This document shows, in pieces, positions 5,540 to 46,727 of a DNA stretch of 64,000 bases. The notes below the pieces were generated by a model. The model worked only from the letters and a program-made list of their open reading frames with translations, did not search any database and had not been told where the DNA came from. The DNA is taken from assembly GCF_003790525.1 (NCBI RefSeq), contig NZ_CP033636.1; one strand, 5' to 3'. Source of the stretch: Escherichia coli. GTDB lineage: Bacteria; Pseudomonadota; Gammaproteobacteria; Enterobacterales; Enterobacteriaceae. Numbering within the stretch: position 1 is the first letter of the stretch; every line of letters begins with the position of its first letter. Position numbers and translations under genes: made by a program.

Positions 5540-6115
5540 TTAGATGTTAACGCCGTGCTGGGAGGCAAGAGCCGCCAGGCCACCGGCAAAGCCCTGACCG
5601 ACAGCTTTAAACTTCCACTCAGCGCCATGACGATACAGTTCACCGAAGACCATAGCGGTTTCGGTTGAGGCATCTTCAGACAGATCGAAACGGGCAATTT
5701 CCGTGCCGTTGTCGTTGTTGTAAACGCGTATGAAGCTGTTGCTCACCATGCCGAAGTTTTGTTTACGCGCTTCTGCATCATAGATGGTAACGGCAAACAC
5801 CAGTTTTTTGATATCTGCTGAGACTTTGGTCAGATCGATTTTGACCTGCTCATCGTCACCGTCGCCTTCACCGGTACGGTTGTCGCCCTGGTGCTCTACC
5901 GCGCCATCAGGGCTGGTTTTGTTATTGAAGAAAATGAAATGCGCATCTGACAGCACTTTACCGTCTTCGCCTACTGCGAACACGGAAGCGTCCAGGTCAA
6001 AAGCCTGACCGTCAGTTACACGGGCATCCCAGCCGAGGCCAACCATAGCGATATTCATGGTTGGTGCTTCTTTGGTCAGAGATACGTTGCCGCCTTTTAC
6101 GAGAGAAACTGCCAT
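5540..6115 (-). CDS. terE: TerE tellurite resistance protein (TerD domain)
   Basis: 191 aa from the internal ATG at 6115 (AGGAG SD); [13 protein letters not shown]... shows the TerD-family pattern; the longer track ORF (to 6319) is an in-frame upstream extension. Confidence 0.85.
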
Positions 6116-6809: not shown

Positions 6810-7850
6810 TTAACTCCCCTTTTCCTCAGATTCAGGTTTGCCCGGGAACATGACGCTTGCGAGAATGCCCAGCGCCAGTACACCCAGTACAACATACAGG
6901 CTGGTTGTTGCCGCGATGCTGTAACCATGATGCCAGATGTGATCGGTCGCATTCAGGCCGAGTTTTGCCGCGATGAAGAACAGCAGCACGATAACGGCCT
7001 TCTCCAGATGAACCAGGTACTGTTTCAGTGCCTCAAGGACAAAGTACAGAGTACGCAGGCCCAGGATAGCAAACATCATGGCACTATAGACGATAAGCGG
7101 TTCACGACTGACGGCAATGATTGCCGGTACCGAGTCAAACGCGAACATTACGTCCGAGAGTTCAACCACAGCTACACACAGGAACAGCGGGGTCGCATAC
7201 AGCGCCGCTTTTTTACCACGGCCAATGGTGACATCGCTGTTTTCTGGTTTCGCCAGTTCAGCATCCACTTCCTTCTGGTTAAGCAGGAAGGCATGCCCTC
7301 TGAGCTTCGGCCAGATAGGGAAGAAGCGTTTAACCATGCGGTAAGCCAGATGCTGGGAGTAATCCTCAATTTCATCATCGTCATCACCGCTTTTAAGCAT
7401 CATGACCGCTGTCCAGGCAACGATAATAGCGAAGACAACTTCAACGTACGGCCCCAGACTCAGCAGGCTCGTACCGATGGCGACAAAGATGCCCCTGAAG
7501 ACAATGGCACCAATGATCCCCCAGTAGAGAACACGGTGGCGATAACGATCCGGAACGGCGAACCAGGAGAAGATGGCCATCATGACGAACAGGTTATCGA
7601 CCGACAGCACTTTCTCCAGCGCATAACCCGTGACAAACAGACTGGCAACCTCAGCACCGTGGTGGATATAGAGGAAACCGGCAAATGCCATCGCAACCAC
7701 AACCCAGAATACGGACCAGAGCGCCGCACTCTTCAGCGAGATAGGCTTGTCATCACGGTGCATAAACAGGTCAATAAAGATGGCACCGACTGAAAGCGCA
7801 ATAAAAACAATGACCGTTTCAGTCGGGAAGCCGATGTGTGTGGAAACCAT
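6810..7850 (-). CDS. terC: TerC integral membrane protein
   Basis: 346 aa, multiple hydrophobic helices and an acidic loop (DDDDEIED); position between terB and terD. Confidence 0.85.
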   Translation of the reverse strand: MVSTHIGFPTETVIVFIALSVGAIFIDLFMHRDDKPISLKSAALWSVFWVVVAMAFAGFLYIHHGAEVASLFVTGYALEKVLSVDNLFVMMAIFSWFAVPDRYRHRVLYWGIIGAIVFRGIFVAIGTSLLSLGPYVEVVFAIIVAWTAVMMLKSGDDDDEIEDYSQHLAYRMVKRFFPIWPKLRGHAFLLNQKEVDAELAKPENSDVTIGRGKKAALYATPLFLCVAVVELSDVMFAFDSVPAIIAVSREPLIVYSAMMFAILGLRTLYFVLEALKQYLVHLEKAVIVLLFFIAAKLGLNATDHIWHHGYSIAATTSLYVVLGVLALGILASVMFPGKPESEEKGS

Positions 7851-7872
7851 ATTTTACCCTTAGGGATGTGGA

Positions 7873-9508: not shown

Positions 9509-10089
9509 TAGCGAATAACCGCTGAAACGATATCGGAGTGCATATCGTCAATTGTGCGGCCGCGACAGGCATGGCCAAGGGCGGTAAAGTCCCAGTTGCC
9601 GTTATTACGGCGCAGCGAAGAAATAACGATCCCGGTATGTGAGCCCTGCTCAGTCAGCTTGTAGCGAGCCAGCTCTTTGCCGGTTTGATCGACAACGCGG
9701 CAGAACGCGTTTTCGACGTCATTGAACGACTGACCACGGAAGCTGTTTACCGTAAACGCCAGGTATTCAACGTTTGCAGGCAGTCGGGAGAGGTTGACCT
9801 TAATCACCTCATCGTCACCGTCACCCTCACCGGTCAGGTTATCGCCACTGTGCACAACAGCGCCGCAGGTGGATTCCAGTTTGCGGAACCAGATGGTGTC
9901 AATTGTTTTACCGGTGCTGTCCATTAATACGCAGCCAGCATCGAGATCGATTGAGTCGTTGCCTCCAAACAATCCTCCAAGAAGACCTTTTTTCTTAACC
10001 GGATCCCAACCGAGACCGAAATGAAGCTGGCTTAATGCAGATGATTCTTTGCTGAGTGATACCGTCTGGTTCTTAACTAATGAAACCAT
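9508..10089 (-). CDS. terZ: TerZ tellurite resistance protein (TerD domain)
   Basis: 193 aa; MVSLVKNQTVSLSKE...[13 protein letters not shown]; AAGGA SD; first gene of the minus-strand ter operon. Confidence 0.85.
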   Translation of the reverse strand: MVSLVKNQTVSLSKESSALSQLHFGLGWDPVKKKGLLGGLFGGNDSIDLDAGCVLMDSTGKTIDTIWFRKLESTCGAVVHSGDNLTGEGDGDDEVIKVNLSRLPANVEYLAFTVNSFRGQSFNDVENAFCRVVDQTGKELARYKLTEQGSHTGIVISSLRRNNGNWDFTALGHACRGRTIDDMHSDIVSAVIR

Positions 10090-10335
10090 GTTTTATTCCT
10101 TAAAATGGTAATGACCGAGACAATCAAAGGTATATTTAGTAACTGACGAAGAAAATCATATCATGATGAAGTTCTCTGACAAGGGAAATTTTGGTAGTTT
10201 TCTTCAAAAACACAAAAATAAATCCTTTTCATGGTGTTCATTTTTCTATTTTTAATTTAAATATCAATACGTTATAAGGTACTAAAAAAACACTGACGCA
10301 CTCCATAACCACTGAAGTTATTAATCATATTATGA

Positions 10336-12622: not shown

Positions 12623-13388
12623 ACCCGTTGTTCTGAGCGACCTTGACGACACGCTCTTTCAGACCCGTCGTAAAATGGTGGACGAGCTGGCCCTGGAGCC
12701 ATTCCGTACCGGTGCCGTTGATCGCACCCTGAATCCACGAAGCTTTATGACGGAAGAACAGTCCATGTTGGTGGACTGGCTCCTGGAGCAGGCTGAACTC
12801 ATACCTGTTACCGCCCGGGGAACTGAAGAAATCAGCCGCGTCCGGATCCCTTTCCACTCCTGGGCAATCACCACGCACGGGGCCGTCATTCTCACGCCTG
12901 AAGGCAAACCCGACGAGGAGTGGAAGGCCCATATGCTTGGCCAGCTGGCTCCCTACCAGGAAAAGCTGACATCGATGCAGCGTCTGATCACTGAAATGAT
13001 GGACGCAAAAGGGATCAATGCCTGGGCAAGGCTGAACTTCGAATACGGTGAAACGGCGGTTTATATGGTGATGAAGCACCGCGACAGCACCCGCCTTGAC
13101 GAGCTCAATGCCATTGCAGATGAGATAGAAACGGTGTTTCCGACCGAGGGCTTCTACATCCACCGCAACAGTAATAACGTGGCCTGGCTTCCCACCCCGG
13201 TTGAGAAAGGGCTGGCCGTCAGATGGCTGCTTGAAAAACTTCGGGCTGAACGCGGAGTCTTCCCCGTAATTGGCCTGGGCGACAGCCTGAGCGATCATCG
13301 TTTTATGAAACTGTGCAGCTGGTTTGGCATCCCGCGTCAGAGTCAGTTTGCAGATGCCATTTCACAGCGAATTTTTGGAGAAAATTAA
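12615..13388 (+). CDS. HAD-superfamily hydrolase/phosphatase (ter-associated)
   Basis: 257 aa from ATG 12615; HAD motif I VLSDLDDTLF at the N-terminus; the track ORF from 12279 is an upstream extension overlapping the PRTase gene. Confidence 0.7.
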   Translation: MNKPVVLSDLDDTLFQTRRKMVDELALEPFRTGAVDRTLNPRSFMTEEQSMLVDWLLEQAELIPVTARGTEEISRVRIPFHSWAITTHGAVILTPEGKPDEEWKAHMLGQLAPYQEKLTSMQRLITEMMDAKGINAWARLNFEYGETAVYMVMKHRDSTRLDELNAIADEIETVFPTEGFYIHRNSNNVAWLPTPVEKGLAVRWLLEKLRAERGVFPVIGLGDSLSDHRFMKLCSWFGIPRQSQFADAISQRIFGEN

Positions 13389-13389
13389 A

Positions 13390-14469
13390 ATGCAGCCACA
13401 TGACACATTTACCGGCTCATACCAGCCCGGTGACGTGGAATTTCTGCTAAAGCCGGTTGTCATTGAGATGACGCCGGTTGAGCAAAAAGAAGAGCTGATT
13501 CAGTCAGGGAAGAAACATTATTCGGACATGCTCAGTCAGGAGCCAGCGCCAACACAATGGCATCTTGATTTGTTTCACCGGGCGCTGGATCGGGGCGCAG
13601 AGAGACTTGCAAAAGAAGTCACACAGCTCGCTATTGCTCTGGCCAAACGCTTTGGTGATGAGCCCATTGTACTGGCCAGTCTTGTCAGGGCTGGCGTGCC
13701 GCTCGGCGTTATGCTGCACCAGGCCCTGCGTGACATGGGGAAAACCTCATGGCATTACGGTATCAGCATTATCCGGGATCGTGGAATTGACGGTGCAGCC
13801 CTCGACGTCATTGAAGAGCGGCATGGTACCAGCGGTATTGTCTTTGTTGACGGATGGACAGGTAAAGGCGCAATTACCGGAGAGCTTGTACGCGCACTGA
13901 AAGATCGCCCGGGCTATCCTGAGCAGCCGCGACTGGTTGTCCTGGCCGATCCCTGTGGCTGCTCCTGGCTTGCAGCCAGTGATGATGACTGGCTCATTCC
14001 TTTTGGCATCATGGGTGCGCCGGTGTCAGGCCTGATCTCCCGGTCAGTGTGGTCCTCTGAAGGATTACACGGGTGCATGGTTTGCGAGCATCTCAGTGAA
14101 TTCGAATGCAGCCGGATGCTTGTCGATACCGTCGCTCATTTCCGTAAGAAGTTAACCCCGTCATCCCTCGCTCCCCTGAGCTGGAATACGGAGTCAGCCC
14201 GGATCTTATGGCAGACAAGTCGCGACGTTATCGCGTTCCTGGCCGATGAATTTAAAGTGGACAGCGTCAATCGTATAAAACCCGGTATTGCTGAAGCAAC
14301 CCGGGCTGTATTACGTCGGGTACCGGACCATGTATTTGTGCGTTCTATTGACGACCCGGACGTTGCCTTGCTTGTAGGGCTTGCTCGTGAAAAGGGAATA
14401 GTTGTTACAGAAATGGGGGGAACCCTCGGCCAGTATCGGGCTGTAACCATTATCAAGAAGGTACTTTGA
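13390..14469 (+). CDS. ter-associated protein with PRTase-like segment and conserved cysteines (possibly StiP-like)
   Basis: 359 aa from ATG 13390; segment GIVFVDGWTGKGAITGEL resembles a PRTase nucleotide-binding loop; CGCSW and CMVCEH cysteine clusters; exact family not certain. Confidence 0.5.
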   Translation: MQPHDTFTGSYQPGDVEFLLKPVVIEMTPVEQKEELIQSGKKHYSDMLSQEPAPTQWHLDLFHRALDRGAERLAKEVTQLAIALAKRFGDEPIVLASLVRAGVPLGVMLHQALRDMGKTSWHYGISIIRDRGIDGAALDVIEERHGTSGIVFVDGWTGKGAITGELVRALKDRPGYPEQPRLVVLADPCGCSWLAASDDDWLIPFGIMGAPVSGLISRSVWSSEGLHGCMVCEHLSEFECSRMLVDTVAHFRKKLTPSSLAPLSWNTESARILWQTSRDVIAFLADEFKVDSVNRIKPGIAEATRAVLRRVPDHVFVRSIDDPDVALLVGLAREKGIVVTEMGGTLGQYRAVTIIKKVL

Positions 14470-31769: not shown

Positions 31770-32726
31770 TCAAGCAGCTTGTGAAACTGAATCTCCAACT
31801 GCAAGATTTAAATTTCTTAGGTTATCGAAAACTTCAGATACTAAGTCATTACGGTCGTGGATTTTAATCCGCCCACCGGTTAACTCTGAAACATAAACGG
31901 TATGGCAGAGGTCAGTAACCACTTCGCCGTATTCATCAACGACTTCCAAAGATGCAATCATCGGAATATAAGAAGCCGCAGCATAGCTCTCATAAATACT
32001 TATTATGGAGTCATTGTTGCGTCGAGAAATTACCCTACCAGAAGGTAAAGCCTCATCTTCCATATAGCAATCAGATAGGTCCTCACAGAAGTCATTTTCT
32101 TTAAGTGAAATATTAAGGGTCAATTCACTGTTGATAGAGCGTGAATAAGAATATTCACTCAGTTTATAGCAAGCCAAACTAATATCACTAAAAGTTTCAT
32201 AAGCTTTATAGAGGCTCGATGTTATAGACTCAGATACAAATGTTATTAGTCCAATAAAATGAGTATCCCAGAACTGTTGCAAAGCAAAACGGGCAATCAT
32301 AACCTGACCATCAACCTGCATCAGTCTGTTATATTCATCCCGGTCATAACCTTTCGACTGAGAAACATCATTAGACATGCTAAGAACTTCACTACAAACA
32401 TCATCATATTCAAAACGACTAGTTGCAAAGTGTTTTCCTGAAATTTCAAGGTACTGACCAGAGACTGCGTCAAACACCTCAAGAAAGTAACAGAGTCGCG
32501 ATTTTAAAGATTCTCTGTTTAAAGCTTCTATTTCATTCTCAGAGATACTATCGACATATAAATCAACAACATTCTTGAGTTCAATAGCTTTGATATTACA
32601 GGTAAAAGAAAGCTCGTCACTTTGACAATGGCAAACACTTAATACTATATCCGCCTCATCAAAATCTATGCCAAGATAACTCAGAACTGCTCGGACATAG
32701 TTTTTATCATCAGATGAATGTGTCAT
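31770..32726 (-). CDS. paralogue-array protein P5 (about 318 aa, unknown function)
   Basis: Clear similarity to P4 (e.g. QVDGQVMIARFALQQFWDTHFIGLITFV versus KVDGKVLVAKFALKQFFHSDFGDFISFV); ATG 32726 preceded by GAGGTAGTGTAT as for P4. Confidence 0.55.
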   Translation of the reverse strand: MTHSSDDKNYVRAVLSYLGIDFDEADIVLSVCHCQSDELSFTCNIKAIELKNVVDLYVDSISENEIEALNRESLKSRLCYFLEVFDAVSGQYLEISGKHFATSRFEYDDVCSEVLSMSNDVSQSKGYDRDEYNRLMQVDGQVMIARFALQQFWDTHFIGLITFVSESITSSLYKAYETFSDISLACYKLSEYSYSRSINSELTLNISLKENDFCEDLSDCYMEDEALPSGRVISRRNNDSIISIYESYAAASYIPMIASLEVVDEYGEVVTDLCHTVYVSELTGGRIKIHDRNDLVSEVFDNLRNLNLAVGDSVSQAA

Positions 32727-32866
32727 ATACACTACCTCGAATTTGAGAGGAAGTGCCCCAGAAGGGAAGCGACTTCCCCACTGGGTTAGATAAAAATTTG
32801 GTTAAGCTAAAAGAAGATGCCAGCGACAGATTTTACATTGTCATAGACAAGTGTCTTCAGCCAACC

Positions 32867-32877
32867 AAAGTTACTTT
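32867..32877. repeat. AAAGTWACTTT palindrome copy 5 (intergenic P4-P5)
   Basis: Exact match ccAAAGTTACTTTTTTgg. Confidence 0.9.
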
Positions 32878-32897
32878 TTTGGACTGAAGCAAAAGGA

Positions 32898-33836
32898 TCA
32901 TTGAGACGCGTTACGAAAATCGTCAAAAGCTTCAGTTATTAGTAATGTGCGATCAGTTACTCTGTATCGGTCATTACTTTCGAGAGATACGTAAGTTGAA
33001 TGCGAAGAATCACAGACAACACGCCCTCTTTTATTGATCAATCTTACTTCCATCATCACCGGCACATTGATAATTGAAGCAACATCGGTATAGAGGGATA
33101 TGAGGGCATCATTGTCACAATATAACGCCCCGTTCCCATCAAATGTATCGTTAAACTTAATATATATATCTGGCATATTTGCCGGATAATCATCAGTATT
33201 GAAATCAATGCATAACTTTAAGTCATCATTAATACGGCGATTAATCTTATGCTGCCCTACACGTACAAAGCCATGTTCAACAGCTTTGATAATCCTTAAA
33301 GTTTCATTAAGACAATCTGTAATTCTTTTCTCGACAAATGAGATAAAGTCACCAAAGTCGGAATGAAAAAACTGTTTAAGTGCAAATTTCGCAACTAACA
33401 CTTTCCCATCCACCTTCATTTTATCGAGATAAAGATTTCTTATAGCATCAGTAGAAGAATTAGCTTTAGATAACTCTTCACAGTCATTAATAATCATTGA
33501 AACAATATCAATAACTTTAACTGGGCTTAAAGTATTACTATATCCGCGAATATCAAACGTAAAAAATCCGAAATTCTTAAATACTCCAAGAAAATAAATT
33601 ATTTTTTGTTTCAAAAGAATAGAATCGGAGTAAGATGCGTTGTGCTTTATTAGCTCAGATATGTAGAGATCCAACATACAATTTAAATTATCGATATCTA
33701 CATCGTAATCAAAGGTTACTTTGTCGAACGAAGTATCAGATAATTGAACGGTTATATCGTCAGCGGAAACATTAAGGCCTAAATTTTGATAAAGAAAGGC
33801 ACTAACAAATTCCACGTGGTCAGATTCTTTAAACAT
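32898..33836 (-). CDS. paralogue-array protein P4 (312 aa, unknown function)
   Basis: Paralogous to P5; GAGG SD. Confidence 0.55.
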   Translation of the reverse strand: MFKESDHVEFVSAFLYQNLGLNVSADDITVQLSDTSFDKVTFDYDVDIDNLNCMLDLYISELIKHNASYSDSILLKQKIIYFLGVFKNFGFFTFDIRGYSNTLSPVKVIDIVSMIINDCEELSKANSSTDAIRNLYLDKMKVDGKVLVAKFALKQFFHSDFGDFISFVEKRITDCLNETLRIIKAVEHGFVRVGQHKINRRINDDLKLCIDFNTDDYPANMPDIYIKFNDTFDGNGALYCDNDALISLYTDVASIINVPVMMEVRLINKRGRVVCDSSHSTYVSLESNDRYRVTDRTLLITEAFDDFRNASQ

Positions 33837-33902
33837 TTACACTACCTCATGACTAAAAAGGAAGTGCTTCCCACCGGGAAGCAGGTTCCCGGATGGGTTA
33901 GA

Positions 33903-34823: not shown

Positions 34824-34843
34824 TTCAATACCCTCTTAATAGA

Positions 34844-34879
34844 GGGATTTCTCCCATAGGGAGAAATCCCTATGGGAGA
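34844..34879 (-). repeat. Two overlapping, mutually exclusive perfect hairpins between P2 and P3
   Basis: GGGATTTCTCCC-ATA-GGGAGAAATCCC (34844-34870) overlaps TCTCCCATAGGGA-GAAA-TCCCTATGGGAGA (34850-34879); followed by CCCTCT-ATTA-AGAGGG which pairs with the SD of P3. Confidence 0.7.
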
Positions 34880-34891
34880 AAATAATTTTAA

Positions 34892-35827: not shown

Positions 35828-35843
35828 GTGATCCTCTCTCAAT

Positions 35844-35879
35844 AAAAAAAGGGATCACTCCCATATGGGGTGTGATCCC
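35844..35879 (-). terminator. Terminator-like hairpin with U7 between P1 and P2
   Basis: On the minus strand: GGGATCAC-(13-nt loop containing palindrome CCCATATGGG)-GTGATCCC followed by T7, then the SD and start of P2. Confidence 0.6.
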
Positions 35880-35897
35880 CACATGGGTATAATTTAA

Positions 35898-36776: not shown

Positions 36777-36854
36777 ACAGCCTCCATTCGTTATTGAGGC
36801 CTCCCTGATGCAGGTTGGCCATCAGGGAAAATATGTAAATCAATTAGCAATCAA

Positions 36855-37376: not shown

Positions 37377-37569
37377 TAAAATGCTCTCCGATGTAAAACG
37401 ACGAGCATCACCATAACGGTAATACTCCCGTTATGGGTTTTAATAGTTTATGGAATAACCATGTCATACAACCGACCATAGCCAGTAGTACCGCACATTT
37501 ATTTAACTGAGCAAGCATCTCAGCCGTGAAAAGACCTTAAAGGCAGGTAATTATCACGAAGGAAAGCGG

Positions 37570-37646: not shown

Positions 37647-38879
37647 TTACAGCTGATTAAGACATTCAGGAGCCCAGTGAATCGGGAATCCATCCTGCCC
37701 TGTTAACTGGAGAACATCGTTCCAGTCGATACCCTTTTTCCCATCAGGAATATCTTGTGCTGGTTCGAAGACTTCAATTGTCAGCTTTGATGCGGGATAT
37801 CGTTTAGCCAAAAACTCAACCATGCGGCTTTGAAGTCGCTGAGCAGCTTCAATACCGGCACGAGTGCCTTGTGAGTTAGCAATATCCTTATCCGCCCAGA
37901 TATAAAAGTTTATAGATTTTACATCCGGCGGAGGCAGTAAAAAATCAGGAACAGTAACGTTTTCAAGGCACCATGCGGAGCTGGCTGCCCAGCATGGTGT
38001 TGAAGTCGCTTCTACAACAGAAAGCGCGTTCTCGATCCCTTCAGCCACTCCCAGTGTCCAGGTCGAACTACCTGAATCATAGTGAGGGTCAAACAACTGA
38101 ATTGAGCCACCTGTCATATCGGCAGGAGGCTTCATCATCAGCTTTGGATTTTCTACAGGTGCCTTATCACCATTTTTGTCTACGTATGTTCTATGAATAG
38201 TCAGAGGCCGACCTCGGGTGTCACGATAGATCGCAATCATTCCCGGATAGATAATCGATTTCTGCTTATCTTTATCCCAATAGTAGATCCGGTTATTAAA
38301 GCCTAAATCCTTTGGTAAGTGACTCAGTAAGCGGGAGATCCCACGATTACGGAGGTACAAAGCAACAGGAGTATTAGGCTTGATTTCACCGGTATAGTGA
38401 TACATCACATCAAGTTTTCGCATTCGCTTTGCCACTTCCTCTCGGTCAAGAGTTTCTGTGGCACGAACTGCTGATTTATAGCGTCGTTCATTTTCAATGT
38501 CGGCGTCAGTTAACGGAGCATGCAGATCCATCCCGAAAAAATCTGAGAGAATCTTTTTGCAAGTCTGCGTTTTACTTAATTCATAATATTTCGCCAGAAC
38601 ATCAATTCCGTCGCAAAACTCATTTACCGGAAAGTCATTATGGATCGCACATCCGGTATAAAGGTCTTTTTGTCGGAAACGAAACTTCGATTTCCCTGCG
38701 CCAGTAAACGGGCAAGGAACCTGGCTCGGGGCTTTTGCACAAGCGTCTTTGAAAGCAGGTATTCTTTCGAATATATACTTCCAGCCAGACACTTCAGCAA
38801 TTCGAGCATGAACGAGTTTAATAAAGTGTTCAGATACTTCCTGTGGATTACGACGAAGAGCCGGGGATGCATAAGTCAT
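37647..38879 (-). CDS. DNA primase-like protein (CHC2 zinc finger plus TOPRIM domain)
   Basis: Zinc-binding motif CPFTGAGKSKFRF...C.H; TOPRIM-like GVAEGIENA and WADKDIANSQG; start taken at ATG 38879, track ORF starts at 38951 and overlaps the upstream terminator. Confidence 0.65.
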   Translation of the reverse strand: MTYASPALRRNPQEVSEHFIKLVHARIAEVSGWKYIFERIPAFKDACAKAPSQVPCPFTGAGKSKFRFRQKDLYTGCAIHNDFPVNEFCDGIDVLAKYYELSKTQTCKKILSDFFGMDLHAPLTDADIENERRYKSAVRATETLDREEVAKRMRKLDVMYHYTGEIKPNTPVALYLRNRGISRLLSHLPKDLGFNNRIYYWDKDKQKSIIYPGMIAIYRDTRGRPLTIHRTYVDKNGDKAPVENPKLMMKPPADMTGGSIQLFDPHYDSGSSTWTLGVAEGIENALSVVEATSTPCWAASSAWCLENVTVPDFLLPPPDVKSINFYIWADKDIANSQGTRAGIEAAQRLQSRMVEFLAKRYPASKLTIEVFEPAQDIPDGKKGIDWNDVLQLTGQDGFPIHWAPECLNQL

Positions 38880-38960
38880 GATGATCTCTCTTATCTGGCA
38901 TTGTGAGTTTCTCAATGCCTTCTGCGGTGCAGAAGACAGGGAGAAACCCACAACGCAGAA

Positions 38961-38987
38961 TTTAAGAAAGAGGGCCCGGGGGCCCTC
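38961..38987 (-). terminator. Terminator-like hairpin after the 73-aa gene
   Basis: GAGGGCCC / GGGCCCTC stem followed on the minus strand by a U-rich tract (TTTCTTAAATT). Confidence 0.5.
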
Positions 38988-38992
38988 AACAT

Positions 38993-39214
38993 TTATGCTT
39001 CAGTCGTGAAGCCATTATTCTCAAGACACTGTATGTAGTTATCTACAAGTAACGCAGCCTGCTGGCTATTACCCTCCGCTATAGTGACTTCGCGGAAGAT
39101 TCTTTCCTGAGGGCTATCATTGCTTATAACTTCACCAACACGTCCGAAAATACGGACTTTATGCATCGCACCGACTTTTTCATGTTCTACACGGTAAGTT
39201 TTTATCTGAGTCAT
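38993..39214 (-). CDS. hypothetical small protein (73 aa)
   Basis: AAGGAG SD; no motif recognised. Confidence 0.4.
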   Translation of the reverse strand: MTQIKTYRVEHEKVGAMHKVRIFGRVGEVISNDSPQERIFREVTIAEGNSQQAALLVDNYIQCLENNGFTTEA

Positions 39215-39242
39215 ATTTTGCTCCTTATTCCTTCATGGAGCA
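39215..39242 (-). other. Hairpin that pairs with the SD of the 73-aa gene
   Basis: TTTGCTCC (39215-39222) pairs with GGAGCAAA (39235-39242); on the mRNA the AAGGAG SD lies inside the stem. Confidence 0.45.
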
Positions 39243-39285
39243 AAAAGACCCACCGGGGCCTTTTGCCCCGATTGGGTAGAGTTTA

Positions 39286-41298
39286 TTAAGAAAGTATTTG
39301 ATGAACTAGCTTACTGACTTCAATAGACAATAAAGAAGTATCATCAACTGTTACGAAAGTGTCCGTTTCAAAACCAATTATTTCATCAGTCTTAATACCA
39401 ACACCAACGATTTCTATTCCATTACATTTAGCCTTTTCCATAACTTCGCCGATAGTAAATTCCGATTTATTCGGATAACCATCAGTTATAAGAAAAATTA
39501 TTTTCCTATCGAATTGGCTGTCAAGTAACAGATCAACAGCTGCCATTAAAGCCGATCCCGTAGGGGTATAATAACCCTTACATCCAAGAGTGAATTTCGA
39601 TAGAGATTCCTCAACGCTTTGATCAAACGTTTTGATAATCTCAAATTCACTTTCCTTGAAGGGAAAGACTATATTGGAGACATGCATTTTTGACAAACTT
39701 TCAGCGGCCATCGATAAAGCAAGATCTGACTTAATGGCATGAATATATCTTTCATCATTAGCCATTGACGCTGAAATATCACGAACTAATACGAGGCCAA
39801 CATGCCCTCTATTTTTAGATTCGCTTTGAGCTCTGAAGACATCACGAACTCCCATTGGTGACAGAATTAATCGATTTCCATCGAAGGTAATTCCACGCTC
39901 ATGAGTTTTGTTTCGGCCACGCATTTTAACCTGCTGTAAAACAGACAAGTCGCTACCGATTGAATGACTCAGAGACAAAGCCTCATTGTAAACATTCAAA
40001 TCGATAAGGAGATCAGGGATATCCCATTCAGAAGCACCGAATTCGGCTTTCACGTCATCGGATACTTTTGATGCAATACCTTCAATCTCTTCAGCCAAAG
40101 CATCGTGATAATCTTCGCTATCCTCATCACTGCCAAGAAAGGCATCCAACAAATCTGCCAGTATCTCCCATTGAGCCGATGAAAAGTTACTTTCATCTTC
40201 AACGTTAGTCGAACTGGCTTCATCTGATTCACTCTCGGAAGGGTTAATCGCATCAGTATCGTCTTCAATAATGTTATCACCTGTGGGATTGCCACCGGTG
40301 GGTTCATTATTTCCCTCGTTATCTTCAGCAAGTTCTGAAGGCTCAGAACATCCCTCTTGAGCAAGATCAGAGTTATCGGAAGTATCTGCCTGACCTTCAC
40401 TATCGTCCTCAGAATCATCCTCACGACTATCAGTCGACTCAAGCGATTTATCTTCTGATTCGGTATCGGTATCGGTATCGGTCTCGGATTCATCATATGC
40501 CTCCTGCTCCTCCTGCTCTGTCTGCTGCTGTTGTTCCCTTGCCTCATCCCGCAGTCTCTCTAAAAGAGCCAGGGTCTTACGAGCAAGGGATTCACAGCCC
40601 TGAGTATTTTCACAACCAAGAGCATCATGAAAAATTTCCTCAACATCAGAAATTACTGGAGAAAGTATCTTTTGGGCATAGTCAAAAAACGGATCGAGTG
40701 TTTCTTTGTGACCTGCCTGCTGAAGGACTTTTACTCGCAATGAGTTAAGCAGATACCACTCAATAAATAGGACAGGATTTTCCGGACGAGAAGATATATC
40801 AGGAGTCATCCTTCCGGCTTTAACCATCAGTGCGTAAGTGGCTGCAAGCCGCCGCTTTGCATCCGGATAATCGTTACCAACCTTCTCTTCCATCTGTACA
40901 TCATCGAACAGATTTATAAGCCCGGTAAGACGTTTTGCCCTGCTATAAGCTTTACGTTTCTCAGCGAGGCTCTCAAACTCTGCATTCATTCCGTCATCGA
41001 AGCGTGTAAACCCTTCAGATGACTTGAGAACACTATTAAAGGCGTCACTGTAAACCTCGCTGTCGGTATAGCGACCATGACCAGCTTCATGACAGGTAAA
41101 ACCTTCAATCAGACTGACAAAGTCATCATCGCTATAATCGCCGTTTGGTAAAACACAAACTTTATTTACAGGATCAAAATACGGTCCTTTGGTATTGTCG
41201 TCTATTACAACTCTTACATCGCCTAAGCCGCTAATGACTTTTGCTATATTCTGTAAACGCTTAATATGGCGCGGTGATGATTTAAGATCTAATTTCAT
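39286..41298 (-). CDS. vWA domain protein with acidic low-complexity region (CobT-like)
   Basis: 670 aa; C-terminal vWA (LVLVRDISASM...FLITDGYPN); central acidic, Asp/Glu/Ser-rich region with TDTDTDTE repeat; AAAGAGG SD. Confidence 0.65.
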   Translation of the reverse strand: MKLDLKSSPRHIKRLQNIAKVISGLGDVRVVIDDNTKGPYFDPVNKVCVLPNGDYSDDDFVSLIEGFTCHEAGHGRYTDSEVYSDAFNSVLKSSEGFTRFDDGMNAEFESLAEKRKAYSRAKRLTGLINLFDDVQMEEKVGNDYPDAKRRLAATYALMVKAGRMTPDISSRPENPVLFIEWYLLNSLRVKVLQQAGHKETLDPFFDYAQKILSPVISDVEEIFHDALGCENTQGCESLARKTLALLERLRDEAREQQQQTEQEEQEAYDESETDTDTDTESEDKSLESTDSREDDSEDDSEGQADTSDNSDLAQEGCSEPSELAEDNEGNNEPTGGNPTGDNIIEDDTDAINPSESESDEASSTNVEDESNFSSAQWEILADLLDAFLGSDEDSEDYHDALAEEIEGIASKVSDDVKAEFGASEWDIPDLLIDLNVYNEALSLSHSIGSDLSVLQQVKMRGRNKTHERGITFDGNRLILSPMGVRDVFRAQSESKNRGHVGLVLVRDISASMANDERYIHAIKSDLALSMAAESLSKMHVSNIVFPFKESEFEIIKTFDQSVEESLSKFTLGCKGYYTPTGSALMAAVDLLLDSQFDRKIIFLITDGYPNKSEFTIGEVMEKAKCNGIEIVGVGIKTDEIIGFETDTFVTVDDTSLLSIEVSKLVHQILS
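40183..40193. repeat. AAAGTWACTTT palindrome copy 7 (inside vWA CDS, S-N-F register)
   Basis: Exact match tgAAAAGTTACTTTcat. Confidence 0.9.
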
Positions 41299-41314
41299 AG
41301 AATACCTCTTTATA

Positions 41315-41362
41315 AAAAAGGGGTACTCACCCAGATGGTGAAGTACCCATCTGGGGTTTTTA
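41315..41362. terminator. Bidirectional terminator-like palindrome between the 379-aa gene and the vWA gene
   Basis: AAAAAA-GGGGTACTCACCCAGATGGTGAAGTACCCATCTGGGG-TTTTT; nested stems CCCAGATGG/CCATCTGGG and GGGTACT/AGTACCC flanked by A6 and T5. Confidence 0.6.
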
Positions 41363-41375
41363 ATAAAGCAAACAG

Positions 41376-42503: not shown

Positions 42504-42871
42504 GGGTTTCTCCAAAAAAAAGGGGAAACCCTCCCCAACGGGAAAGATTTCCCGATAGGGTTGATATTAAAGCTTCTCTGGTGAAATTAAAAGAATACCG
42601 GGAAACTCAGCAACAACATCATCATTGCCCATTGCTCCCTGATACATATAACCTTTTAATTCCATTTGTTTAATCAGACCTTCCATATTTATTTTACCAT
42701 CATGATAAAACAATAAAGAATAGTCGTTATTCAGTTGCATAAGTCCAGTAAAATTAGTTCCGTTTTTTGCTATAGCAATGGTAGCAGCACCATCCGTACT
42801 TAAAAACGCACTAAATTCAAGATGGGATAACTCTGAGATACAAATATCAGAGGTTTCATAACAAATCCCAT

Positions 42872-45403: not shown

Positions 45404-45460
45404 TTTCCGCTCCTCGATTTGTTCAAAGAGAAGCCCCGTTAGGGTTCCCCCTTAACAGGA

Positions 45461-46333: not shown

Positions 46334-46462
46334 TTGGGGTCACCTATATATAGTAAGAAGGAAGAAACAATTTTTTGTTTCAACACGAAGGCAAAGCCTG
46401 TCATTCATCTCCCGTAAGCTATGAACCGCCTGATTTATACTATCTGGCATTAGAAGTACGCA

Positions 46463-46487
46463 ACAAAAATAGCTCCAGGAGGAGCTA
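46463..46487 (-). terminator. Rho-independent terminator about 240 nt downstream of the helicase gene
   Basis: On the minus strand: TAGCTCC-TCCT-GGAGCTA followed by TTTTTGTTG. Confidence 0.55.
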
Positions 46488-46628
46488 AATTAGTTACGGT
46501 TTGGTAAATTCAGATTGCCTTTTTCAGGCATGGGAAGTGCACCAGCGACAAAGGTGACATTTTGCCGGTGGTGTCTTACAGCTTGTTTAAGCTGGCCGCT
46601 TTTCACGGCTAAATCAACGCTTAACGCG

Positions 46629-46639
46629 AAAGTAACTTT
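46629..46639. repeat. AAAGTWACTTT palindrome copy 8 (intergenic), paired with an inverted partial copy
   Basis: cgAAAGTAACTTTaagcAAAGTTACTcaa; the two copies can form a 9-bp stem. Confidence 0.9.
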
Positions 46640-46727
46640 AAGCAAAGTTACTCAAATTTGGGAGCTGATATTTAAGCTCATTGTTTTTATACTATAGCTT
46701 TAAGCATAAGTAAATGCCCATATCGAA

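Follow-up and report, generated by a model that had tools for sequence, protein, structure and literature searches.

The gene for a 73-residue protein (38993-39214, minus strand) is preceded by a Shine-Dalgarno (SD) sequence that pairs with bases further upstream on the mRNA, which raises the question of whether this pairing restrains translation of the gene and, if so, what would relieve it. A sequence-only reading of the locus had placed the SD inside a stem and had suggested that translation could depend on translation of the preceding gene or on another unfolding event. The window, i.e. the whole stretch of 64,000 nt that was analysed, is IncHI2 plasmid backbone. Many E. coli and Salmonella plasmids of 200-290 kb, typed IncHI2A/MOBH, match the 501-nt region around the hairpin at 100% identity, and the whole window is collinear with pAMSH1 (63,919 of 64,000 positions identical). 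The genes of interest lie on the minus strand in a long co-directional series downstream of trhI, consisting of three hypothetical genes, an AAA ATPase, a small ORF, a DUF3150 gene, the gene for a 670-residue VWA-domain protein, the 73-residue gene, the gene for a DUF7146/toprim protein and then more hypothetical genes. This gene order is fixed across IncHI1, IncHI2 and IncHI3 plasmids. The part that begins with the first gene after trhI and ends with the toprim gene corresponds to R0002, R0001 and R0210-R0204 of plasmid R27, a mapping inferred from the order and the matching count of nine genes, and by gene order the 73-residue gene is the orthologue of R0205. Its product has a predicted beta-beta-beta-alpha fold, and analyses of the protein yielded neither an assignable family nor a functional lead. 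The VWA gene and the 73-residue gene are 71 nt apart on one transcript, the former ending in a UAA stop codon (39286-39288, minus strand) that is followed by a second in-frame UAA.

On the mRNA, the spacer reads UAAUAAACUCU-ACCCAAUCGGGGCAAAAGGCCCCGGUGGGU-CU-UUUUGCUCC-AUGAAGGAAUAA-GGAGCAAAA-U-AUG and is folded by RNAfold into two adjacent hairpins with an MFE of -32.5 kcal/mol (z = -3.9), leaving about 13 nt unpaired in the whole 71 nt. The upstream, GC-rich hairpin (H1; 39248-39277, minus strand; ACCCA(A)UCGGGGC-AAAAG-GCCCCGGUGGGU) has 12 bp with one bulge and a predicted energy of -21.4 kcal/mol, and ends 2 nt upstream of the second hairpin (H2). H2 is formed by nine perfect base pairs between an anti-SD 5' arm (UUUUGCUCC; 39245-39237) and a 3' arm comprising the SD core and the spacer (GGAGCAAAA; 39224-39216), which enclose a 12-nt loop (AUGAAGGAAUAA; 39225-39236, all on the minus strand). 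The SD itself, AAGGAG (39221-39226, minus strand), is situated 6 nt before the AUG at 39214-39212, and its last four bases (GGAG) as well as the entire SD-AUG spacer are paired in the stem. The earlier placement of the SD inside a stem is thus confirmed, and the pairing it described is present, although the range 39215-39242 given for it clips 3 nt from the 5' arm of a stem that is one base pair longer. The GC hairpin reported just upstream is likewise present, but at 12 bp it is twice as long as described.

H2 alone has an MFE of -11.1 kcal/mol at 37 °C, and in a 46-nt context it reaches -14.1 kcal/mol (z = -2.95), a stability equalled by two of 200 shuffled sequences. Opening the SD is predicted to cost about 9.0 kcal/mol, compared with 3.0 ± 1.3 kcal/mol when the upstream intergenic region is dinucleotide-shuffled, and a single shuffle out of 200 attains the observed value. 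A palindrome of 8-9 bp is by itself unremarkable, as about 14 perfect stems of at least 8 bp are expected in a composition-matched 64-kb sequence; the placement of H2 over the SD is not a matter of chance. In H2 the SD is therefore paired in a stable local stem, the arrangement expected of an RBS-occluding hairpin.

Both hairpins are present, with a spacer of about 71 nt, in all nine lineages that were compared: IncHI2, a diverged IncHI2-like contig, IncHI1, pLec-476, a Photorhabdus contig, two metagenomic contigs and two Klebsiella IncHI3-like plasmids. A profile search of genome contigs with the VWA profile returned two loci only. Between IncHI2 and IncHI1 the 71-nt region is about 90% identical, compared with 64% for the 73-residue protein; in the Klebsiella IncHI3-like plasmids the VWA protein and the small protein are 34% and 30% identical, respectively, to those of the window. 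The six core pairs of H2 (UUGCUC/GAGCAA) are invariant in the nine lineages, and the next pair outward (pair 51-80) is U-A, A-U or G-C depending on the lineage. Beyond the core the stem is built differently: IncHI2 has 9-10 bp around a 12-nt loop, IncHI1-like plasmids have 7 bp extended inwards by another 3 bp, and in Klebsiella 11 bp enclose a loop of 9 nt. The energy is nevertheless held at -10.1 to -14.6 kcal/mol through different pairs, and pairing is maintained in the homologues. Three of the 12 loop positions vary within IncHI1/2, and the loop is replaced by GCCUUUAAG in the IncHI3-like plasmids. For K. grimontii, opening the SD in its own sequence context costs just 4.9 kcal/mol in the ensemble, a value reached by 72 of 200 shuffles. 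An invariant core is uninformative on its own, and with no variation in it here, direct covariation comes from the one flanking pair together with the conserved stability. The 5' arm, however, is non-coding and has outlasted 70% divergence of the protein while its only evident property is complementarity to the RBS, which argues for selection on the pairing.

H1 is kept in IncHI2 and IncHI1 despite a register shift between them. In IncHI2 it has the shape of an intrinsic terminator, a GC-rich stem-loop with a U-tract, as it is followed by five U residues (39242-39246, minus strand) that also form the outer part of the anti-SD arm. Among the lineages this terminator-like run is confined to IncHI2: the tail is CUUUUUG there, CGCUUUG in IncHI1 and AUGUUUG or GUAUUUG in the Klebsiella plasmids. 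Expression data for R27 bear on whether transcription passes this point. Gibert et al. 2020 (PMC7366339) reported that a 'cluster of 9 genes, from R0204 to R0002' is strongly induced at 25 °C relative to 37 °C, together with the tra genes, with R0205 induced 8.7-fold and its neighbours 5-23-fold. The microarray signals at 25 °C were 197 for R0206, 352 for R0205 and 403 for R0204 (PMC7366339). Since the signal does not fall from R0206 to R0204, the mRNA continues across the intergenic region between the VWA and 73-residue genes, and H1 is not a strong terminator there.

The sequence-only reading treated the hairpin as a single feature. When every spacer of the cluster was folded, it proved rather to be one copy of a module found in about 12 of 14 intergenic regions between positions 45460 and 32727 of the window. 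The series runs through the counterparts of the R27 genes induced at low temperature (R0002-R0204) and on into the genes beyond them. In each module a GC-rich hairpin lies soon after the stop codon (4 to 29 nt from it); the SD hairpin follows at a distance of 0-2 nt, and 0-7 nt separate its end from the AUG. The 15 cluster genes have a median SD opening energy of 7.8 kcal/mol, compared with 3.0 kcal/mol for the 48 other annotated genes of the window (Mann-Whitney p = 0.0013, an optimistic value as the cluster was delimited after the pattern had been seen), and for seven of the 14 cluster intergenic regions no more than three of 200 shuffles reach the observed opening energy. The H1 hairpins share the consensus CCC-N2-5-GGG...CCC-N2-5-GGG with complementary spacers (which may also be written CCCA..GGG..CCC..UGGG). 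Six copies of this motif occur in the window, H1 of the 73-residue gene among them, against 0.07 expected, and every one lies in a cluster intergenic region; in the complete 180-kb R27 all seven sites fall within the orthologous cluster. The H1 loops differ among copies, as do the sequences of the H2 5' arms, and the SDs of the cluster are strong (around -6 to -8.7 kcal/mol).

The sister modules, all on the minus strand, follow this plan with different sequences. At 45404-45460, H1 (CCUGUUA.GGG/CCCUAACGGG) is followed by the SD hairpin GCUUCUC/GAGGAGC. The module before the DUF3150 gene (42504-42566) has the SD hairpin GGGUUUC.CC/GG.AGAAACCC, which IncHI1 and IncHI3 preserve in another sequence. 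Before the VWA gene (41299-41375) the SD hairpin is GAGUACC/GGUAUUC, and in Klebsiella IncHI3 it is replaced by the unrelated sequence GCGCCCAU/AUGGGUGC with the same fold, the RBS still being covered. The module before the toprim gene (38880-38992) is enlarged; besides an outer stem, CUCUUUCUUA/UAAGAGAG, that covers the SD, it has a terminator-like hairpin and a long conserved one. The 270-nt region between the toprim gene and the next gene carries a CCAUAACGG hairpin and an SD hairpin at its 3' end (37377-37438), and at 36777-36854 UCCCUGAUG../CAUCAGGGA is followed by GGCCUC/GAGGCU over the SD. The SD hairpin at 35828-35897 is GUGAUCC/GGAUCAC and reads GUAAUCC/GGAUUAC in IncHI1, a compensatory change from G-C to A-U. 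Further along, a 15-bp H1 precedes CCCUC/GAGGG over the SD (34824-34891), an H1 with ACCCAUCCGGGAA.. precedes GCACU.CCUU/GAGG.UAGUGU (33837-33902), and a final module stands at the end of a 171-nt intergenic region (32727-32787). Compensation is also seen in a sister SD hairpin that reads GGGUUUC..GAAACCC, GGUUUUC..GAAAACC or GAUAUUUUUCC..GGAGAAAUAUC. Conservation of the sister regions was judged from folds made lineage by lineage; MAFFT column counts were set aside, as bulged and unbulged lineages are out of register in the alignment.

The flanking genes contain a single paralogous pair, and gene duplication is therefore not the explanation of the repeated intergenic regions. In a much more distantly related Aeromonas operon the spacers are structured in another way and leave the SDs free, so that the module is an IncHI-family trait. 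Full-text literature searches returned no prior description of such spacers.

Several further observations were made on the spacers and genes of this operon family. The paralogous pair belongs to a run of five consecutive hypothetical genes (about 290-320 residues) after the toprim region, of which only the last two, at 32898-33836 and 31770-32726 (minus strand; within 31770-33836), are detectably paralogous (27% identity, E = 3e-37); the SD hairpins upstream of these two have GCACUUCC..GAGGUAGUGU in common. The toprim spacer (38880-38992, 113 nt, minus strand; MFE of the intergenic region -62.7) contains a terminator-like element, GAGGGCCCCCGGGCCCUC+UUUCUU, and a long hairpin that is nearly perfect, GUGGGUUUCUC..UUCUGC-ACC-GCAGAA..GAGAAACUCAC. 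The 69 nt in the middle of the spacer have matches of 84-87% identity in unannotated DNA of hundreds of Klebsiella IncHI3-like plasmids; these matches are the orthologous toprim leader, and the changes between lineages are compatible with pairing. For the primase-like gene next to it, this spacer could provide a leader RNA or a signal in single-stranded DNA. Between trhI and the first cluster gene lies a heavily structured spacer of 394 nt (46334-46727, minus strand; MFE -123.7), in which the promoter matches are only weak and a terminator-like element, UAGCUCCUCCUGGAGCUA+UUUUUG, occupies 46487-46470. In the spacer before the DUF3150 gene of K. oxytoca pKOX3-p1 (7764-7860), H1 is directly preceded by 13 consecutive C residues, which could be a slippage-prone tract or an assembly artefact. 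The distant relative of the operon on Aeromonas media pAeme5, which includes toprim, ATPase, DUF3150 and VWA genes, has spacers with arrays of tiny CCUUCGGG (UUCG-tetraloop) hairpins at 5617-5699, 10035-10173, 13155-13214 and 13746-13880 (for example AUCCUUCGGGAU..GCCUUCGGGC..ACCUUCGGGU), which are a different repeated intergenic element in the same operon family. An ATG ORF of 42 residues on the plus strand (39161-39289), antisense to the spacer and the start of the 73-residue gene, is unannotated in every record examined, has no supporting signal and is probably spurious.

The reading favoured here, with slightly better than even confidence, is that H2 acts as a constitutive translational throttle within a conserved intercistronic module. 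According to this proposal the 9-bp stem UUUUGCUCC/GGAGCAAAA would keep the SD core and the SD-AUG spacer double-stranded on the polycistronic mRNA. The anti-SD arm is transcribed ahead of the SD and lies beyond the reach of a ribosome terminating on the VWA gene, for which reason the stem should form on essentially every transcript. The stem would thereby lower de novo 30S loading, and the strong SD AAGGAG would permit just a low, breathing-limited rate of initiation. The most likely role of H1 would be to insulate and stabilize the upstream cistron, either as a structural barrier on its 3' side or as a weak terminator. The enclosure of the SD and spacer in a stable, conserved stem supports the earlier suggestion that some unfolding event is needed for initiation. 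Ribosomal protein S1 is able to unfold hairpins of the size of H2, and the throttle could therefore be mild. The conserved, operon-specific sequence motif of H1 exceeds the needs of a passive throttle.

The motif is one reason to consider that the modules might instead block translation of the whole operon for as long as no trans-acting factor unfolds the SD hairpins. The binding sites of such a factor would be the H1 hairpins or the C/U-rich arms that pair with the SDs. Candidates include a plasmid protein, an sRNA, a helicase and an RNA chaperone of the CspA family, which is plentiful in the cold and during early growth, as well as Hfq or ProQ acting on the hairpin-plus-U-run, and the effect would be to add a post-transcriptional layer to thermoregulated IncHI expression. 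The exclusiveness of the H1 motif to this operon goes beyond what the fold alone would require, and together with the strict juxtaposition of H1 and H2, separated by 0-2 nt in every module, makes a factor-gated switch a serious alternative. The co-induction of the operon with the tra genes at 25 °C fits such a switch, as do the strong SDs, which look as if translation were intended once the hairpins open. Against it, the window annotation yields no candidate RNA-binding protein, and neither the H1 loops nor the sequences of the H2 5' arms are conserved among copies. On balance a gated switch is possible but clearly the less probable explanation. A more specific form of it, in which the approximately 12 spacers are a dedicated cis-regulatory RNA family and one trans-acting factor gates the translation, and perhaps the read-through, of the IncHI low-temperature operon, is more doubtful still; that single factor, recognizing the CCCA..GGG..CCC..UGGG hairpin or the anti-SD arms, could be a cold-shock-type RNA chaperone or a plasmid protein.

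The structures might also serve mainly in mRNA stabilization or processing, with SD pairing as a side effect: folding could shield an AU-rich intergenic region from RNase E and 3' exonucleases, or a coaxial stack of H1 and H2 could form a processing site. The small number of unpaired nucleotides in the spacer would suit this role, H1 stands where REP-like stabilizers sit, and the distant Aeromonas operon has structured intergenic regions (UUCG mini-hairpins) without SD occlusion. Yet H2 always takes in the SD and ends at the AUG, the replacement hairpin before the VWA gene in IncHI3 still lies over the RBS, and the stems are too short for canonical RNase III sites. Stabilization as the main function is accordingly regarded as improbable.

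Translational coupling, in which ribosomes finishing the VWA gene unfold the SD hairpin so that the 73-residue protein is made only when VWA is translated, has in its favour that the two genes are 71 nt apart on one transcript, and dependence on upstream translation was among the possibilities raised by the sequence-only reading. The geometry is unfavourable: the VWA stop codon (39288-39286) and the start of the anti-SD arm are separated by 40 nt that include the -21 kcal/mol H1, and the arm thus lies outside the footprint of about 13-15 nt that a terminating ribosome covers past the stop. Occupancy of the stop codon does not expose the SD either: when pairing was forbidden through stop+13 nt as a mimic of a terminating ribosome, the SD opening energy rose from 8.9 to 10.0 kcal/mol, and masking the whole 5' arm of H1 lowered it only to 7.9 kcal/mol. 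The same ribosome mask does open three sister intergenic regions (those at 45404, 42504 and 33837), where the SD opening energy drops from 7-9 to 2-3 kcal/mol, but the modules differ in how far H1 lies from the stop codon (4 to 29 nt), so that coupling is not their general logic. The 40-nt distance, the intervening H1 and the ineffective mask leave coupling to upstream translation unsupported for the 73-residue gene, and quite unlikely as the explanation of H2. A relay model, in which the ribosome opens H1 and the freed 3' arm of H1 pairs with the anti-SD arm to release the SD, works in silico in three sister intergenic regions and was rejected for the VWA/73-residue region, where it does not.

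An RNA thermometer, in which H2 would melt with temperature and so tie translation to the IncHI temperature phenotype, is suggested by the SD in a hairpin, by the UUGCU of the anti-SD arm (as in ROSE elements) and by the temperature control of IncHI functions. A thermometer would be a marginal, mismatched helix melting at about 30-42 °C, whereas H2 is a perfect stem with MFEs of -13.9, -11.1 and -9.9 kcal/mol and SD opening energies of 10.3, 8.9 and 8.3 kcal/mol at 25, 37 and 42 °C, respectively. An Rfam covariance-model scan of 38700-39500 identified no ROSE, fourU or cis-regulatory family and gave only chance matches (for example to miRNA, snoRNA and plastid-rpoB models). With a perfect stem that is predicted to stay closed at physiological temperatures, no Rfam match and an mRNA that is made at 25 °C, when a heat-opened element would be shut, a thermometer is very unlikely. 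Equally remote is a chance palindrome without function, for which the abundance of perfect 8-9 bp stems in composition-matched sequence would speak, as against the placement over the SD (1/200 shuffles), the conservation in nine lineages with maintained stability and the recurrence in about 12 intergenic regions.

Other candidate features of the spacer were considered and rejected. A mini-ORF (AUG-AAG-GAA-UAA) in the H2 loop has CUG in place of its AUG in most IncHI1-type lineages and disappears with the loop in IncHI3, and a 'standby' SD in the loop is not conserved. A CsrA site might be seen in the loop AAGGAA and the SD AAGGAG of IncHI1/2, which start 8 nt apart, but the loop GGA motif is absent from the IncHI3-like loop GCCUUUAAG and from the sister modules. 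An integron attC site (RYYYAAC ... GTTRRRY) was dismissed because its cores are missing from the IncHI2 copy and from the other H1 copies and the gene order is fixed; the IncHI1 copy of H1 alone fortuitously reads ACCCAAT...GTTGGGT. No internal promoter between the arms, of the type found in T4, was found in the VWA/73-residue intergenic region. The VWA gene itself does contain, at 39497-39524 (minus strand), a near-consensus sigma-70-like promoter (TTGACA-16-AATAAT, 11/12), which precedes the start codon of the 73-residue gene by 280 nt. Its -10 element is AATTGT in IncHI1, i.e. not conserved, and the region is unalignable in IncHI3, so that this promoter is probably fortuitous.

IncHI1, IncHI2 and IncHI3 plasmids are of major importance as carriers of resistance to multiple drugs, colistin and carbapenems, and their biology is governed by tight temperature-dependent silencing. 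A hairpin over nearly every RBS of the cluster points to protein output being deliberately restrained or gated through the RNA, a control that would stand beyond the known transcriptional circuit of H-NS/Hha and TrhR/TrhY-HtdA. The module would be the more interesting if a trans-acting key exists; were that reading true, it would represent an unrecognized post-transcriptional layer of the classic temperature-sensitive IncHI phenotype. If it is a passive throttle only, it would still provide a clean natural example of operon-wide tuning by RBS structure. In either case the conserved hairpins define simple mutations with which the share of the RNA layer in plasmid cost and transfer could be tested.

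Among known systems, ROSE and fourU elements resemble H2 in having the SD paired by a U-rich, UUGCU-like anti-SD in a hairpin that ends near the AUG; H2 differs in lacking a destabilizing bulge, as well as in its predicted closure at 42 °C and its lack of an Rfam match. REP/BIME elements are repeated GC-rich imperfect palindromes of enterobacterial chromosomes that are located just after stop codons inside operons; they are thought to stabilize upstream mRNA and are able to affect translation near the stop codon. H1 is likewise one of a family of similar imperfect palindromes in intergenic regions after stops (six copies in the window and seven R27 sites). The H1 copies, however, are restricted to one plasmid operon instead of being dispersed over many unrelated transcription units, have another consensus and are each joined to an SD hairpin.

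In the cea-cei-cel intercistronic region of ColE7, a terminator stem-loop is followed by the cel SD, which is repressed by CsrA (PMC2896534). Both operons are carried by plasmids, both have a terminator-like hairpin just ahead of a small gene's SD, and in both the restraint is, or would be, post-transcriptional. In the IncHI operon it would be exerted by an intramolecular anti-SD arm rather than through a demonstrated protein site, and the loop GGA (AAGGAA) is lost in the IncHI3-like plasmids.

The kind of control proposed for H2 is well known. Classical coupling through an RBS-masking structure operates in the lysis and replicase genes of RNA phages and in many operons, and there too the SD of a downstream cistron is hidden on a polycistronic mRNA. 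In the present case the masking arm is intergenic, 40 nt past the stop and behind the -21 kcal/mol H1, beyond the terminating ribosome. More generally, the structure of operon mRNA, organized ORF by ORF, sets the translation of each cistron. H2 also invites comparison with SD-occluding hairpins acting as translational attenuators, as reportedly worked out by de Smit and van Duin with a series of MS2 coat-gene hairpins. In both, a strong SD competes with the local stem (about -10 to -14 kcal/mol) that holds it and its spacer, and the effect is expected to be quantitative, cistron by cistron. What sets the IncHI plasmids apart is the second, operon-specific hairpin and the repetition of the arrangement in about 12 consecutive intergenic regions. 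H2 is a conserved hairpin over an RBS and one member of a family of two-hairpin intercistronic modules that is specific to this IncHI operon.
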